Shown here one piece after another: positions 4,616 to 36,354 of a stretch of DNA of 64,000 bases. Below the pieces are notes generated by a model. It was given only the letters and a program-made list of their open reading frames with translations. It searched no databases and was not told the DNA's origin. The stretch comes from Escherichia phage JK1. The position numbers were made by a program, and so were the translations under genes. Numbering within the stretch: the first letter of the stretch is position 1; every line of letters begins with the position of its first letter. The stretch is taken from sequence record MZ436830.1; one strand, 5' to 3'.

Positions 4616-4989
4616 TTAAATTTAATAGCTTGAAGAAGACTAATAATTCTCAAGCGACTTCTTTCATCTTTAACTGTAAAGGAAAGAGAGTCGCCAGATT
4701 TCATGGTAATAGTGCATTCAAAATCAAAATCTTCTGTGACTTCTTCGAAGAAGTCAAATTCTTCAGCATAAATTAGAACATTACTCTGCATACTGTGAAG
4801 AATTTTTCCGTTATTTCCAGACGCTGTACTAATCATCGTAACATTATGACCTTTCATATCTTCAACGATAAATTCGCTTGTAGATATTACAGCATTAATA
4901 GAACCATTCCTATAAATAGCAGACATTAGATATTTCTTTTCTTCGCCTTCGCGAATACGATATTTCTTACCGATTTTAAACATAATCAC
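4612..4989 (-). CDS. hypothetical protein
   Basis: 125-aa ORF, start overlaps stop of upstream gene. Confidence 0.5.
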   Translation of the reverse strand: MIMFKIGKKYRIREGEEKKYLMSAIYRNGSINAVISTSEFIVEDMKGHNVTMISTASGNNGKILHSMQSNVLIYAEEFDFFEEVTEDFDFECTITMKSGDSLSFTVKDERSRLRIISLLQAIKFK

Positions 4990-5015: not shown

Positions 5016-5162
5016 ATTCACATGCTTAGGAGCAGAAGGCCGACGAGTAGACAAACGATGACATTTAGGGCAAACATCATTTTCTCGTTCAGAAATCTTT
5101 TTAATTTTTTCATATTCATGCCCGCAATCTTCGGATTGGCATTTATAATCATACATTGGCAT
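5016..5162 (-). CDS. small zinc-ribbon protein (FmdB-like, MPxYxYxCxxCGH...CPxC)
   Basis: 48-codon ORF below the track cutoff; AAGGA SD 5 nt upstream of ATG; two CxxC pairs. Confidence 0.5.
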
Positions 5163-5164
5163 AA

Positions 5165-5584
5165 TTATTCCTTAAAGTGAGCTTTCAACATCTGATACAA
5201 GGACCATGCCTGTTCATTATTTTCAATAGTAACTTTCATGACTGGGAATTCTGTGAAATCTTCTATTTGTTCTTGCTCTTCCTGCTCTTGTTCTTCAGCT
5301 GCTTGGTATGGATTTTCCACTTCATCAAAGAATTCAGCTTCGCTAGTAGAAAGCCAAATAAAATCTTCATCCAAAATATCTTTACCGGAGGATAATGCCA
5401 ATCTTCCAGTAGATGTCACAATTTTAGTAGGACGACCAAGATAGTCAATATCTATAACTTTAAAAGGTTCCATACCTAAACGTCGTGCATAAATTCCGTT
5501 TTCAGTATGGTCTTTAATAAAAGCTTCTTGAGCTTGTTTATTTTTAAATTGATACCATTTATTGACTTCAAATCTAATAGCCAT
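5165..5584 (-). CDS. hypothetical protein with acidic [10 protein letters not shown] tract
   Basis: 139-aa ORF. Confidence 0.5.
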
Positions 5585-5799
5585 TAATAAATTTCCTTCC
5601 AGTAAGTTGTACCGTCTTCAGTGATTTCACGGAATACACCATAAATCGGTTGTTTATCACCAACCTTTTCATACACATAAACCGAAGTCAAGTGAGTAAA
5701 CTTGATGGTGTGTTCCTTTTGAACTACTACCAAATCTGGATCGAATAATACATCTTCAAATTCGTCATTAGTGCAGTTCTGAACAATTTTACGTTTCAT
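5584..5799 (-). CDS. hypothetical protein
   Basis: 71-aa ORF; stop/start overlap with neighbour. Confidence 0.45.
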
Positions 5800-5812
5800 T
5801 ACAATTTCCTCA

Positions 5813-6082
5813 TTAATTGAACAGTGGAGCGATGCGTTTCAGAAGAGTAGCAGCACCTTTGGCAAATTTTACATCATGAAAAACAGTTTCTTCTTCTGTA
5901 ACAACTCGAACTTTAATATTTTCACAATCCCAATTTTTACGAACAATCTTCAAAAGCTGCAGTAAATCTTTACATTCAGCAATATCGATAACACATCCAC
6001 GAGAATCTTCCATTATCGCACGATAACCGTAAGCCATACCATAATCGTTAAAAGATTGCTCGATGATAATTAAGTTTTCCAT
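5813..6082 (-). CDS. hypothetical protein
   Basis: ATG preceded by GGAG; track start is an upstream TTG extension. Confidence 0.5.
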   Translation of the reverse strand: MENLIIIEQSFNDYGMAYGYRAIMEDSRGCVIDIAECKDLLQLLKIVRKNWDCENIKVRVVTEEETVFHDVKFAKGAATLLKRIAPLFN

Positions 6083-6160
6083 TTTATTCTCCAAGTTGTT
6101 TTCTGTATCAGTAGTTGATATTGATATAGTACCATAATCAACTACTGATGTATATAGTTT
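6083..6160 (-). repeat. promoter/5'-UTR cassette, copy A (contains 13-bp perfect inverted repeat)
   Basis: shares ttttattctccaa...gtatcagtagttgata..tatagtacca with 25292-25380 and 51712-51790. Confidence 0.6.
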
Positions 6161-6181
6161 TATGAAAAAAAAATTTAAACT

Positions 6182-6673
6182 TTATGCATAGCGAGCTTTG
6201 CTGTAGTGTTTAATCCAACTTTCAGGAATGACTTTGTATGTTCCTAAAAATACCGTGTTGTACAGCTTAACACCGTCTTCTACCCACTGATCGGTAATGT
6301 ATGCGCACATAGCACGAGTACGGTTAACAACCCCTTCCTCACCTTCAGTAAATTCAAACTCATAAGGAGCAACGAACTTGATAGCTTGACCGAGTTTCCA
6401 CTTAAAATCTACACCTACATGCGAAGTATCAATCGTTTCAATTCCTTTAGCGGGAACAGCTTTCAAAAACGCAGGCTCAAGAAATTTCCATCGAACATAA
6501 CCAAACTGAGGTTTAGACATTCCATCTTTAGGAATGATACGCACTTTTACTTCAGAATCTTCATCTTTAACACCATGTTTAAGCTGAATGCTTACAACTT
6601 CAACCAATTTTCCTGCTGCCTTAGAACGGGATTTATCAGATACACGAGCAATTTCACCGATATTAATATTCAT
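6182..6673 (-). CDS. hypothetical protein (motB region), paralogue of 6747-7250
   Basis: 163-aa ORF; C-terminal ITDQWVEDGV segment shared with next ORF. Confidence 0.5.
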   Translation of the reverse strand: MNINIGEIARVSDKSRSKAAGKLVEVVSIQLKHGVKDEDSEVKVRIIPKDGMSKPQFGYVRWKFLEPAFLKAVPAKGIETIDTSHVGVDFKWKLGQAIKFVAPYEFEFTEGEEGVVNRTRAMCAYITDQWVEDGVKLYNTVFLGTYKVIPESWIKHYSKARYA

Positions 6674-21081: not shown

Positions 21082-21438
21082 TTAAAAGAATTTAAATTTT
21101 TTCTTTGACCTTTTATTAAATGCATCTTGCAGTTGCATTGTAATACATTTTTCTACATGAGGAGCTAACTCAGCTTTTCTTTCTTGGTCAAGAACAGCAA
21201 AGTCCATTACGACTTTTCCATCAACCCAATCTAATTTTGTCACATACACAATGTGTGTAGAACCATCTTCTAGTTTAATGACAATCTCCTGGATAACATT
21301 TTCCATGGCAGATTTAATTATCTTAAGAGATTCATTAAAAAGACGTTCTTTTCTTTCTTCTTCCCCCTCCGAAGAGGGGGATTCATCGATAATTTCTAGA
21401 TCTAAATCATCTTTATTCATTAAATTCTTCCATATCAC
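21082..21438 (-). CDS. 40: gp40-like protein (head vertex assembly chaperone position)
   Basis: 118 aa between uvsX and 41. Confidence 0.55.
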   Translation of the reverse strand: MIWKNLMNKDDLDLEIIDESPSSEGEEERKERLFNESLKIIKSAMENVIQEIVIKLEDGSTHIVYVTKLDWVDGKVVMDFAVLDQERKAELAPHVEKCITMQLQDAFNKRSKKKFKFF

Positions 21439-22594
21439 TTAACTGTTCGAGGTCAGTTTCTAAATCAGCAGCTGATTTACTTTTACTTTCTGGAGATTTA
21501 AATTTTTCAACCTTTGAGTTAATCAATTCATCAACTTCAGCTTCAACAATTTCATTACTATCAATAGCACCTAACTGATAAGCACGTTTAATAGCATCTC
21601 GGAATGGTTGATGCTTAAATAAAGGACCCCAGAATGTAGTGCAGTTGGTATCTTTTGCACGCCAAGATTTTTCTTCGCGAATCATCTCGCCGGTTTCTTC
21701 GTCAAGAAATTCACGAGCATACCAACCATTCTTAGGTTTTACTACAAATCCTAATTCTAGAGCCATATCTAACAATCCAGAATAAGGATCGATACCACCG
21801 TCAAATTTAACATCAATAAAGAATTTACTTTTTTCTTTAACGGTACGAGATTTTTCTACATTTAGAACAAATTGATACCCTTGAAGATCAGAACCATCTT
21901 TAATCTGACGCTTACCGATAATGAATACGGTATCAGCCGAATACATTACGCCTGTACCACCTGTCATCACGGTTTTACTAAACATTTCAATTGTTTCAAT
22001 TGTATGGTTAACCGCAACACATGGAATATTTTTAATGCTAAAGTAAGGAGTAACAATACGGAATAATGACTTCAGTGATTTAGCACGAGTCATATCTGCC
22101 ACAGATTTTTCATTCAAGGCATCTTCCGTTTCTTTCTTAGAAGCCATATTACCAATTGAGTCGATGAATACTATAACCTTTTCACCACGCTCAATAGCTT
22201 CAAGCTGATTCACCATATCAATTTTCAGCTGTTCAACTGATTGAATTGGCGTATGAATTACACGTTCCGGGTCAACTCCCATGGATCGCAAATAAGCTGG
22301 AGTAATACCAAATTCGCTATCATAGAATAGACAAACTGCGTCAGGATATTTGTTCAAATATGCCGCAACCATAGTCAAAGACATATTTGATTTAAAGTGT
22401 TTAGAAGGCCCTGCGAAAATAGTTAAACCAGACTGCATACCGCCATCAATCGCACCAGAAATAGCAATATTAAGCATTGGGATTTTTGTACGGATTACAT
22501 CCTTTTCATTAAAGAATTTAGATGTAGTCAGTTCAGCAGTCATTTTAGAAGTGGAAGCTTTAATCAAACGGGATTTTAAATCTGCAATAGACAT
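21413..22594 (-). CDS. uvsX: UvsX recombinase (RecA-like)
   Basis: 393 aa; Walker A GPSKHFKS; strong match to T4 UvsX. Confidence 0.9.
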   Translation of the reverse strand: MSIADLKSRLIKASTSKMTAELTTSKFFNEKDVIRTKIPMLNIAISGAIDGGMQSGLTIFAGPSKHFKSNMSLTMVAAYLNKYPDAVCLFYDSEFGITPAYLRSMGVDPERVIHTPIQSVEQLKIDMVNQLEAIERGEKVIVFIDSIGNMASKKETEDALNEKSVADMTRAKSLKSLFRIVTPYFSIKNIPCVAVNHTIETIEMFSKTVMTGGTGVMYSADTVFIIGKRQIKDGSDLQGYQFVLNVEKSRTVKEKSKFFIDVKFDGGIDPYSGLLDMALELGFVVKPKNGWYAREFLDEETGEMIREEKSWRAKDTNCTTFWGPLFKHQPFRDAIKRAYQLGAIDSNEIVEAEVDELINSKVEKFKSPESKSKSAADLETDLEQLSDMEEFNE

Positions 22595-22671
22595 TCATTT
22601 TTTCCATAGGCATCATTATATTTTCCTCACTGGTTAAAGATAGAGTAATTATAACACAATAAATTTAGGCA

Positions 22672-23520
22672 TTAATCAACTGCTATTGGATGAATAGCAT
22701 TAAACTTATGAAATGCTTCTGATTTTTCTTTACGAGAAACACACATGCGAAGAACCTTTAATGGCTCGTCTTCTTCACCCAACGATTTTCGTTTTTCAAT
22801 ATTAGAAGTTTTCCAACGAGCTTGCTCTGGAAACTCTCTATTGATTTGCTCAAGCGCTCTATTATGTTTAGAATTACTACGAATTGAACTGCACCCGCCA
22901 GGAGCTTGTGCTTTTCCAGATACAACCAGATATTTGAACAAGGCCAAATGCGGATAACCTTGATTAATTAAATTGAGAAATGCATACATATCTTCGCACA
23001 AATCAATTTTTCCATACCCAATTTGTTCTGTCGTAAGTTTTCCGAGGTCATACCATGTATTCGTGAATCCATATGAATTTTCACGATAATTACCCCAAGA
23101 TGAAGTAATTTTAAAAATAGGTAGACGAGCATGACCGTGATAATACCCGCAATCCATGGCATCTTCAACGTATTGAATCAATTCATAGAACTGTTCACGG
23201 GTTAATTGATTGACTTTATCTACACAACGACGGTCATCTCTTTTTCGCATTGAACTCATACGAATAGTAGTATCATCGTCAATCATCCAGATTCGTTGAC
23301 CTGCATACATATCAGTAATTGCTTTACGAGTACCGGCAATTCCGTTTACATCATCAGGAATAGTTATAATTTTAGCTCTAGACCCATAGGCATCATAATA
23401 AGCTTTTTCTTCATGTTCACGCACTACAATATGGGGTTCATAATCAGTCGGAAACATATCAAGGGCAGAAACTGCCCCGACACGCTGATAACTTGGAATT
23501 ACGAATTGAATCATTTCCAC
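22672..23520 (-). CDS. GT-A fold glycosyltransferase (DxD), probable HMC-DNA glucosyltransferase at the beta-gt locus
   Basis: 282 aa; IWMIDDDTTI DxD motif; between uvsX and 42. Confidence 0.55.
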   Translation of the reverse strand: MEMIQFVIPSYQRVGAVSALDMFPTDYEPHIVVREHEEKAYYDAYGSRAKIITIPDDVNGIAGTRKAITDMYAGQRIWMIDDDTTIRMSSMRKRDDRRCVDKVNQLTREQFYELIQYVEDAMDCGYYHGHARLPIFKITSSWGNYRENSYGFTNTWYDLGKLTTEQIGYGKIDLCEDMYAFLNLINQGYPHLALFKYLVVSGKAQAPGGCSSIRSNSKHNRALEQINREFPEQARWKTSNIEKRKSLGEEDEPLKVLRMCVSRKEKSEAFHKFNAIHPIAVD

Positions 23521-24251
23521 TCACCTTTATAGTCTTTTTTCACAATATGAGTTTCGCCAGTATTCCACCAATGATCAACCAAGTAAAAATGACGAGAATA
23601 TACATGAAGACTTCCGACATTCCATATAATAGAACCTGCTTTATACTGACGAGTTAAATCGCCGGCATTCAAATCAGATACTAATTTATCTAATACGTAT
23701 TTTTGCCATGCATAATCATTACGGAATCCGAAGACCACGTCATTTGAGCGCATGCTTACTACTGCATTGACTTTCTTATCACGAATCAGGTACTGTACTG
23801 TATTAGTACACATGAAATCTGACATACCATCTTTATTGTAGTCAAATTGCATGGATGGACGAGTATAAATCATGATACCACGTCGAGAATCAGGATTTTG
23901 ACCAAGTTCAGCTAAACACATATCATACTGGGCATAGTTATCTTCTGACCAAATAGCCCAACCATAATTCGAGTTAATTTCGCCTTTAGAAGATGCTACC
24001 TGCTGCCAAATCTTTGGTGTTTCACCTGGAATATCTTTAACAAACAAGCTCTTAGATTTATACCATTCAAGTTCACGCTGAATGTATTCATCATTAAGAG
24101 CGCCAAAAATAAACGGTTCATCTGCTACAAATGATGCGCCAATAATTTCAATAGTTTTAACACCGGTTTTATCAACTACGAAATCTTTTTCTTTTAATGC
24201 AAGCCCCAAATGAAGACGGATTTCTTCAACTGTCATAGAGTCACTAATCAT
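23511..24251 (-). CDS. 42: dCMP hydroxymethylase
   Basis: 246 aa; thymidylate-synthase-like fold, recognised sequence. Confidence 0.9.
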   Translation of the reverse strand: MISDSMTVEEIRLHLGLALKEKDFVVDKTGVKTIEIIGASFVADEPFIFGALNDEYIQRELEWYKSKSLFVKDIPGETPKIWQQVASSKGEINSNYGWAIWSEDNYAQYDMCLAELGQNPDSRRGIMIYTRPSMQFDYNKDGMSDFMCTNTVQYLIRDKKVNAVVSMRSNDVVFGFRNDYAWQKYVLDKLVSDLNAGDLTRQYKAGSIIWNVGSLHVYSRHFYLVDHWWNTGETHIVKKDYKGEWK

Positions 24252-24258
24252 TTAAACC

Positions 24259-24408
24259 TCAATTGATACATTCATATTTAACTTGTAACAGTAATAAACC
24301 CCAACCTAAAATAATAGTTGGAATCATAAGAGGAACCGTTACACTATAGTATATACTTATTATAATCATCAAGATTAAAAGCAACACTGCTATAATTTTG
24401 CTTTTCAT
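24259..24408 (-). CDS. small membrane protein
   Basis: 49-codon hydrophobic ORF; ATGA overlap with imm stop. Confidence 0.35.
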   Translation of the reverse strand: MKSKIIAVLLLILMIIISIYYSVTVPLMIPTIILGWGLLLLQVKYECIN

Positions 24409-25054: not shown

Positions 25055-25291
25055 TCAAATGCAAGTAGTAATTACTCCAGTAGTGCTTATGCAGGTATTA
25101 CCCATTTGCACACCTAAAGATCCATTTGTATTCACATGAAGATTATCATCAATTTTAACTGATATTTTACCATTAGTGTGAATAACGGTGCTAGATTCAA
25201 TCACAGGTTGAGTATCATTTTCAACACTAACAAATGGAACTGCTGCTAATGCAACTAAACAAACTGCTAAGCATCCCATAACAATTTTCAT
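25055..25291 (-). CDS. small secreted protein
   Basis: signal peptide; ATG with GGAG SD (track start is TTG extension). Confidence 0.5.
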   Translation of the reverse strand: MKIVMGCLAVCLVALAAVPFVSVENDTQPVIESSTVIHTNGKISVKIDDNLHVNTNGSLGVQMGNTCISTTGVITTCI

Positions 25292-25380
25292 TTTATTCTC
25301 CAAATCTGTATCAGTAGTTGATAGTTGTATAGTACCATGGAAGAACAGTCTTGTAAACAGTTTTGTGAAAATTTTTTAGG
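25292..25380 (-). repeat. promoter/5'-UTR cassette, copy B
   Basis: near-identical to copy C apart from a 14-bp variable core; includes GTTTAC and TACTAT. Confidence 0.6.
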
Positions 25381-35135: not shown

Positions 35136-35153
35136 AAAGGGCCGAAGCCCTTT
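35136..35153 (-). terminator. C(UUCG)G hairpin at 3' end of alpha-gt
   Basis: AAAGGGC-UUCG-GCCCUUU. Confidence 0.4.
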
Positions 35154-36354
35154 ATTTTGTAATAATGTCAAACTGTTCTTTAAAGCAGAAGCTTGAATCT
35201 TGATGCTGATACAAAAATTCATAAGCTTTTTCGCGTTCGCGGTCATAAAGAGTTCGGTCAGATGACAGTTCTTTAATACGTTCAAATGTTGATTCCATGT
35301 CATTTTCATCAAACCAAATGATACCGCTATCATGCGAGGTCAAAGGAGTATTATCAACACGGAATTTTAAATTTTCGCCAGTAGATTTCCAAAATACCGG
35401 AATTGTTCCACATGCACCAAGCTCGAGATGAGTATATTCTAAAGAACGTTGTAGATATTTTTTATCCAACTTACTCAACTGATAACCAAAACCGGATTTA
35501 CTCATACGTTCAAGCATTTCGCTATTTACATAACGGTCAAGAATTTGCGTTGGCAAATTAGGAGCAATTTTAATTTGGTCTACTTGATGAAGACGATAAT
35601 ACTCGTATGGAATTCCTTTTTCTTTAATAGGAATGAACGCTGGAGAACGTTCCAGACCTTCCATAATAGTACTTAGTCCTGCAGGTTTAAGATGTTTTTC
35701 ATGAAAATCAAACATCTGATAAAAACCTTTCCATGTAGTCGTACGACCAATCCAACGGTTGATATTCATGTTAATTTCAGAAACATCTTTCCAGTAGGTT
35801 GACCGAACCTTCGCAATATCCATAGGAGGCTGAAAGTTATATACTGTCGGTGCTTCTTCAATATCATCAAACAGAGAAACTGTTTCAGGATACCATTCTT
35901 TCATCAGAACTTTATTAAAATCACCATTATCAGAATGGCTAAAAATAACATCAGCTCGACGAACAGTTTCTTCTAATCCCAAATTTCGGCGCAAAGAAAG
36001 AGAAGAATGGTCATGTTGATAAACTACAACACGAACAGAAGGTTTAATGTTATCAATAATTTTTTTATAGTTATTAATAGTGTCTTCTTCAACCGAAGTA
36101 GCAGGAACTGAATTGATAATTAGAATATCACAATCATTTACCAGCTTAAGTGTTTTATCATATTCTTTTGCCAATAAAACCGGAATTGAAAATGATTTAT
36201 AATCATGCGCGCAATTACGAGTAAATGATTTATCTTTAGCATAAACCAAAGTTACTTCATGACCATTCTTAATAAACCAATCACGTTGCTCAAGAGAAAA
36301 TTTAGTTACACCACAACCTTCAAGACCTCGAGCCATAAAAATACATACTTTCAT
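35152..36354 (-). CDS. agt: DNA alpha-glucosyltransferase
   Basis: 400 aa, recognised sequence. Confidence 0.9.
   Translation of the reverse strand: MKVCIFMARGLEGCGVTKFSLEQRDWFIKNGHEVTLVYAKDKSFTRNCAHDYKSFSIPVLLAKEYDKTLKLVNDCDILIINSVPATSVEEDTINNYKKIIDNIKPSVRVVVYQHDHSSLSLRRNLGLEETVRRADVIFSHSDNGDFNKVLMKEWYPETVSLFDDIEEAPTVYNFQPPMDIAKVRSTYWKDVSEINMNINRWIGRTTTWKGFYQMFDFHEKHLKPAGLSTIMEGLERSPAFIPIKEKGIPYEYYRLHQVDQIKIAPNLPTQILDRYVNSEMLERMSKSGFGYQLSKLDKKYLQRSLEYTHLELGACGTIPVFWKSTGENLKFRVDNTPLTSHDSGIIWFDENDMESTFERIKELSSDRTLYDREREKAYEFLYQHQDSSFCFKEQFDIITK

Follow-up and report, generated by a model that had tools for sequence, protein, structure and literature searches.

Which enzyme does Escherichia phage JK1 (MZ436830.1) encode at the position at which phage T4 carries its beta-glucosyltransferase gene (b-gt), and what kind of DNA modification does it imply? 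In the 64,000-nucleotide stretch of JK1 DNA that we analyzed (the window), an open reading frame is located between the gene for the 393-aa UvsX recombinase, its downstream neighbor (21413..22594, minus strand; recognized from the ORF list and from synteny with annotated records), and gene 42, which lies directly upstream in the same orientation (23511..24251, minus strand). The 246-aa dCMP hydroxymethylase encoded by gene 42 is 96.7% identical to T4 gp42; its matches fall into the thymidylate-synthase superfamily, and none of them reaches equivalog cutoffs. An earlier note on this DNA had placed an ORF encoding the sequence IWMIDDDTTI between uvsX and gene 42, and the ORF list, the neighboring genes and the gene order of relatives all bear this out: the order gene 42 - glucosyltransferase - uvsX is the one annotated in wV7, T2, T6, RB33, QOTSP, and Geo. 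The same note had proposed that the ORF encodes a glucosyltransferase of the T2/T6 type, by which a second, beta-1,6-linked glucose is attached to DNA. We are highly confident that this reading is correct, i.e., that the JK1 gene is the Tequatrovirus beta-glucosyl-HMC-alpha-glucosyltransferase (ba-gt, also designated g-gt or TAGT), acting as the second-glucose enzyme on the phage DNA. Glucosyl-DNA beta-glucosyltransferase is another name for it.

The mechanical ORF (22672..23520, minus strand), within which IWMIDDDTTI is encoded, comprises 282 codons from a GTG. While the 282-aa reading frame that had been described is real, the probable product is a protein of 280 aa, since translation likely starts at the ATG at 23514, two codons (six bases) downstream of the GTG at 23520. 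The latter is disfavored because it is positioned too near the purine-rich sequence GGTGAG, found 5-10 nt upstream of the ATG. From this ATG, the coding sequence of the glucosyltransferase extends over 22672..23514 (minus strand), and an ATG start with a product of 280 aa is also annotated in the relatives examined (wV7, T2, T6 AP018814, RB33, QOTSP, and Geo); the exception is the T6 record MH550421, in which the coding sequence is annotated from M20 owing to an early amber codon. At the 5' end of the gene (...AAAGGTGAGTGGAAATGATTCAA...), the TGA stop codon of gene 42 (23513-23511) and the in-frame ATG of the glucosyltransferase (23514-23512) overlap in an ATGA sequence (23511..23514, minus strand; ...GGTGAGTGGAAATGATTCAA...), a junction that is likewise annotated in wV7, T2, T6, RB33, QOTSP, and Geo. 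This overlap suggests that the two genes are co-transcribed and that their translation may be coupled. Around the glucosyltransferase gene, scans for sigma-70 promoters (12 promoter-like sites vs. 9.7 expected) and for terminators (one terminator-like site vs. 1.1 expected) remained at chance level, and the lone hairpin lies within the coding region.

The ORF is a conserved gene and no chance reading frame, since it is present over its full length and with at least 90% nucleotide identity in at least 474 phage records. This number stems from a megablast search in which the gene was compared with 50,697 phage records and full-length matches at or above this identity were counted; 418 of the 474 records reach at least 95%. 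Almost all carriers belong to the genus Tequatrovirus, and they comprise phages of Escherichia, Shigella, Yersinia, Salmonella, and Citrobacter. The gene is therefore no newcomer: many of these GenBank/RefSeq records already name it beta-glucosyl-HMC-alpha-glucosyltransferase, and it is discussed in the recent literature (PMC13216743; PMC13390438; PMC11078745), which already covers its knockout in T6, its assignment to the GT-A fold and its synteny with the T4 b-gt gene.

For a direct comparison, we fetched the corresponding loci of T2 (AP018813), T6 (AP018814), and T4 (NC_000866). The alignment with the T2 and T6 glucosyltransferases, which had been suggested as a check, revealed two substitutions over 280 aa relative to T2 (R11 and P251 in JK1, H11 and S251 in T2), and three substitutions (at Y40, D55, and R106 of JK1) together with the loss of one residue from the DDD stretch (DD in T6) relative to T6 AP018814. 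Fewer differences separate the JK1 protein from those of wV7 (one substitution) and QOTSP (one substitution, D24N), while that of Geo differs by seven substitutions. The T2 and T6 genes resemble the JK1 gene not only in this identity of ~99% but also in length, in their slot flanked by gene 42 and uvsX, in the ATGA junction and in their partner genes, gene 42 and the alpha-glucosyltransferase gene (a-gt); the remaining differences are trivial, and this is the same gene. The original sequencing of the T2 and T6 genes is said to be the work of Winkler and Rueger in 1993. Family profiles agree with this identification. The JK1 protein matches PHROG 842 ('beta-glucosyl-HMC-alpha-glucosyltransferase'; E = 2.2e-89) and the Pfam family PF20691 (TET-associated glycosyltransferase, TAGT), the latter with 38.9 bits, above the gathering threshold of 27.5, and with residues 5-209 aligned to positions 2-205 of the 205 profile positions. 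NCBIfam offers a model neither for this protein nor for the a-gt product. Together with the T2/T6 identity, the PHROG 842 and PF20691 matches support the second-glucose assignment that had been made from the sequence.

A homologue search in two rounds retrieved 51 relatives, nearly all of them with PF20691 and reaching down to ~15% identity. In an alignment of 48 sequences, five positions only are invariant, R11, R63, D79, D80, and D81, while I6, P7, R32, Y39, T62, and R212 are nearly so. The three aspartates (codons GAC GAT GAT; 23272..23280, minus strand) follow the strand formed by residues 74-78 and constitute the GT-A 'DxD' motif; R11 (codon CGT; 23482..23484, minus strand) is part of an N-terminal IPSYxR motif that probably binds the nucleotide, and is Arg in 48/48 homologues but His in T2. 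D175, an Asp in 42 of the 48 homologues, is a candidate for the catalytic base. As there is no solved structure for any family member, these residues should be read as having putative catalytic roles.

An AlphaFold2 model computed on the homologue alignment (mean pLDDT 93, pTM 0.91) consists of a single Rossmann-like alpha/beta/alpha domain that matches solved GT-A enzymes, with DDD79-81 directly following the predicted strand 74-78; D79-D81 represent the acidic, DxD-type motif that comes after beta-strand 4. When this model was compared with the PDB by Foldseek, mostly GT-A glycosyltransferases of largely GT2 type were recovered at a probability of 1.0, among them TarP, TarS, the K4 chondroitin polymerase K4CP, SpsA, WrtF, AvpGT, POMGnT1, and LARGE1, along with some nucleotidyltransferases of related fold. 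Sequence searches of the PDB, both with the protein and with the 48-sequence profile, yielded nothing significant. The one PDB match of the profile, the GT2 enzyme 9jma/9jn3, is not significant alone (E = 0.1), but pairs IPSYkR with IPTYNR and MiDDD with FLDDD, and 9jn3 is match number 5 in the fold comparison. The model hence supports a GT2-like enzyme of the GT-A fold, and the GT-A type of DxD motif that had been read from the sequence is borne out by these fold matches and by the invariance of DDD in the 48 homologues. A published study has likewise placed the T2/T6 TAGT in PF20691 and, beside GT2, among the enzymes of GT-A fold (PMC13216743). Inverting GT2-type enzymes with a GT-A fold, such as TarP and TarS of S. 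aureus, SpsA of B. subtilis, K4CP of E. coli, and AvpGT, share with the JK1 enzyme the predicted fold (TM about 0.43-0.53, at a sequence identity of 11-15%), an IPxY-x-R-like nucleotide-binding motif at the N-terminus and the acidic DDD after the fourth beta-strand, but use teichoic acid or a polysaccharide as the acceptor, whereas that of the JK1 enzyme, by analogy with its orthologues, would be a sugar on DNA. An inverting mechanism is expected for the JK1 enzyme as well, since the formation of a beta product from UDP-alpha-glucose entails inversion according to established glycosyltransferase mechanism, and this would fit its GT2-like neighbors.

The enzyme is of a different kind from the one that occupies this slot in T4. 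As had been noted from the sequence, the JK1 protein is unlike T4 b-gt: the best local BLASTP match has E = 2.2, i.e., there is no similarity, and its predicted GT-A fold differs from the GT-B fold of T4 b-gt (PMC13216743), so that it does not belong to the family of the latter. Both genes are positioned beside gene 42, and both enzymes, as judged for JK1 from its orthologues, would use UDP-glucose as donor, form a beta linkage and act on phage DNA; the acceptor of T4 b-gt is bare hydroxymethylcytosine (hmC), however, while that of the JK1 enzyme would be the glucose of alpha-glucosyl-hmC. The T4 interval between gene 42 and uvsX holds b-gt plus segA, whereas the JK1 interval contains the glucosyltransferase gene alone. 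A tblastn search with T4 b-gt detected no homologue within the 64-kb window (best E = 1.5). T4 segA, which encodes a GIY-YIG homing endonuclease, separates uvsX from the glucosyltransferase slot (positions 5571-6236 of the fetched T4 locus); in JK1, the spacer between uvsX and the glucosyltransferase gene measures 77 nt (22595-22671), and no segA homologue was found by tblastn anywhere in the window (best E = 1.4).

The gene for the alpha-glucosyltransferase, the source of the alpha-glucosyl-hmC acceptor, is present in the window and was located by tblastn (35152..36354, minus strand; 400 aa). Its product differs at a single residue each from those of T2 (E327D) and QOTSP (T368A), and is 92% identical to the T6 and 91% identical to the T4 protein; it is therefore of the T2/QOTSP allele type, about 33 residues away from T6, whereas Geo has an a-gt of the T6/T4 type. 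Within the 64-kb window searched, JK1 thus possesses the acceptor pathway (gene 42 plus a-gt) and lacks b-gt.

A pathway can be proposed from these components. gp42 would make hm-dCMP, which the phage polymerase then builds into DNA, and the JK1 a-gt would attach an alpha-linked glucose to hmC in the DNA. The JK1 enzyme, by the inverting GT-A chemistry outlined above, would subsequently add a second glucose from UDP-alpha-glucose in a beta-1,6 linkage to yield gentiobiosyl-hmC, with UDP-glucose bound via D79-D81, probably in a metal-dependent manner. Its gene would be read together with gene 42 by way of the ATGA overlap, and fills the slot that is occupied in T4 by the unrelated GT-B enzyme b-gt. 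For the catalytic activity and the product of the JK1 enzyme, we rely on the literature on its orthologues. Deletion of ba-gt in T6 leads to DNA containing alpha-glucosyl-hmC only (PMC11078745, Nature 2024), and the same outcome was obtained when the deletion was repeated under the gene name g-gt (bioRxiv 10.64898/2026.02.25.707755). The pairing of a-gt with TAGT is common in Tequatrovirus, while the a-gt/b-gt pair of T4 is rare (PMC13216743). Tequatrovirus phages from Durham carry a-gt plus a TAGT gene syntenic with T4 b-gt, and HPLC/MS of their DNA detected alpha-gentiobiosyl-hmC and no beta-glucosyl-hmC (PMC13390438, AEM 2026).

How much of the JK1 DNA would be modified in this way is less easily read from the gene, as its presence does not fix the level: the classical values for gentiobiosyl-hmC are 72% in T6 and 5% in T2 (PMC6024577), and among carriers of the gene the range extends from the 5% of T2 over ~40% in the Geo group to ~70% in T6/QOTSP (PMC13390438 for QOTSP and the Geo group). 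The quantitative prediction for JK1 consequently rests on its near-identity to one measured phage, QOTSP (OY720014.1), which is also one of the megablast matches of the gene. QOTSP DNA contains ~1/3 hmC, ~2/3 alpha-gentiobiosyl-hmC and, at a low background level, alpha-glucosyl-hmC (PMC13390438). The gene order of JK1 and QOTSP is alike and each of the two transferases differs by one residue between them (D24N in TAGT, T368A in a-gt); the DNA composition of QOTSP has been measured, that of JK1 is a prediction. Since R11, R63, and DDD79-81 are intact, and since a single residue separates each transferase from its QOTSP counterpart, JK1 virion DNA is predicted to contain roughly 2/3 gentiobiosyl-hmC and 1/3 bare hmC, with little alpha-monoglucosyl-hmC and no beta-glucosyl-hmC. 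The gentiobiosyl rather than beta-glucosyl modification that the earlier note had deduced is accordingly the one favored by analogy, given a-gt and gene 42 without b-gt and the composition of QOTSP DNA.

For JK1 itself, this result matters only as a correct annotation, one which implies gentiobiosyl-hmC in its DNA and not the T4-style beta-glucosyl-hmC. What gentiobiosyl-hmC means for host defenses and DNA handling is indicated by work on T6: in vitro, such DNA withstands the Brig1 glycosylase; the BapA glucosidase is unable to trim it, while it is still a target of GmrSD-type enzymes (PMC11078745; PMC13216743; bioRxiv 10.64898/2026.02.25.707755).

The range of levels among carriers leaves some room for the view that JK1 possesses a genuine ba-gt orthologue but behaves like T2, with a few percent of its hmC gentiobiosylated and DNA that is essentially alpha-monoglucosylated. 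The JK1 a-gt is indeed a T2-type allele, differing from that of T2 by one residue and from that of T6 by ~33, and the T2 example demonstrates that an intact ba-gt ORF can go along with a gentiobiosyl-hmC content of only ~5%. Nevertheless, we consider a T2-like JK1 rather improbable, as QOTSP reaches ~2/3 gentiobiosyl-hmC with an a-gt of this same type (two residues from T2), and as the JK1 enzyme carries neither of the T2-private changes R11H and P251S and is just one residue away from the QOTSP enzyme.

Far smaller still is the chance that this GT-A transferase serves another purpose, using another sugar or acceptor or decorating a surface component of host or phage, and is found at this locus by coincidence. 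Its structural neighbors include the cell-envelope GT2 enzymes TarP, TarS, and K4CP, and many distant TAGT homologues reside in phages without a-gt or b-gt, where their substrates are unknown (PMC13216743). However, the JK1 protein is ~99% identical to the T6 enzyme, without which T6 DNA lacks the second glucose; at such near-identity, an altered specificity is hardly to be expected. Hundreds of hmC phages, moreover, keep the gene beside gene 42. An equally slim chance attaches to the idea that the ORF is a mere remnant, silent or in decay, and unexpressed or inactive. Inactivated alleles do occur in laboratory stocks, as exemplified by the amber codon at position 10 in T6 MH550421, but the JK1 ORF is of full length, encodes Q10 by CAG and retains every residue that is invariant in the family; its start codon overlaps the end of gene 42, to which it is probably coupled, and it differs from functional orthologues by no more than 1-2 substitutions. 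A functional second-glucose enzyme that acts on phage DNA remains by far the best explanation for the JK1 gene.

The comparison of alleles also bears on a 60-year-old puzzle, the difference in gentiobiosylation between T2 and T6. One of the T2-private changes in TAGT is R11H, a change of the codon from CGT to CAT (positions 5093-5095 of the fetched T2 AP018813 locus, corresponding to 23482-23484 in JK1); JK1, QOTSP, and T6 keep Arg11. Exact matches to the 60-mer covering codons 1-20 of the T2 gene are confined to seven T2 records and SV76; the haplotype that comes closest, found in RB33 and others, differs by a single nucleotide (CGT vs. CAT). Since this residue is Arg in 48/48 homologues, and since QOTSP, with a T2-type a-gt and Arg11, is ~2/3 gentiobiosylated compared with 5% in T2, R11H is a possible candidate for the cause of the low gentiobiosylation of T2; P251S is a less likely one. 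The T2-type a-gt allele is ruled out as the cause, as QOTSP has that type. We advance the idea tentatively, as something less than an even bet, that the single T2-private substitution R11H may account for 5% gentiobiosyl-hmC in T2 as against 72% in T6. If this holds, the JK1 allele with Arg11 would be the fully active form, and the residue at position 11 (R/H) would predict the DNA modification phenotype from sequence and also the sensitivity to defenses specific for alpha-glucosyl-hmC (Brig1, BapA/Brig3). No paper proposing R11H as the basis of the T2/T6 difference was found in the literature within reach of our search, which does not extend to the oldest publications.

Two further variants were noticed in T6 records. 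In T6 MH550421, codon 10 of the ba-gt/ggt gene is changed from CAG to the amber codon TAG (positions 729-731 of the fetched locus), with M20 as the annotated start of the coding sequence; the stock used for sequencing may be defective in the second glucosylation, or may depend on a suppressor host or on re-initiation of translation. T6 AP018814/NC_054907 and HP3.2 have a 3-nt deletion in GAC GAT GAT that converts DDD into DD (near position 4740 of the fetched T6 locus), which looks like repeat slippage within the catalytic motif; T6 MH550421, unlike T6 AP018814, has DDD. This change is ruled out as the cause of the high activity of T6, as DDD is found both in T6 MH550421 and in QOTSP, which is T6-like.

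The a-gt alleles themselves display a block-wise pattern. The ~33 differences between the T2/QOTSP type and the T4/T6/Geo type occur in blocks (residues 47-52, 89-118, and 221-276), a mosaic arrangement which suggests recombination between two a-gt lineages. Between gene 42 and gene 43 of JK1, two ORFs for small hydrophobic, membrane-like products flank imm/imm.1, one of 82 aa (25055-25303, minus strand) and one of 49 aa (24259-24408, minus strand). The 82-aa ORF is without a counterpart in the T4 annotation of the gene 42-gene 43 interval; in relatives, both are listed as hypothetical proteins, the 49-aa one under the name '42.1' in RB33.
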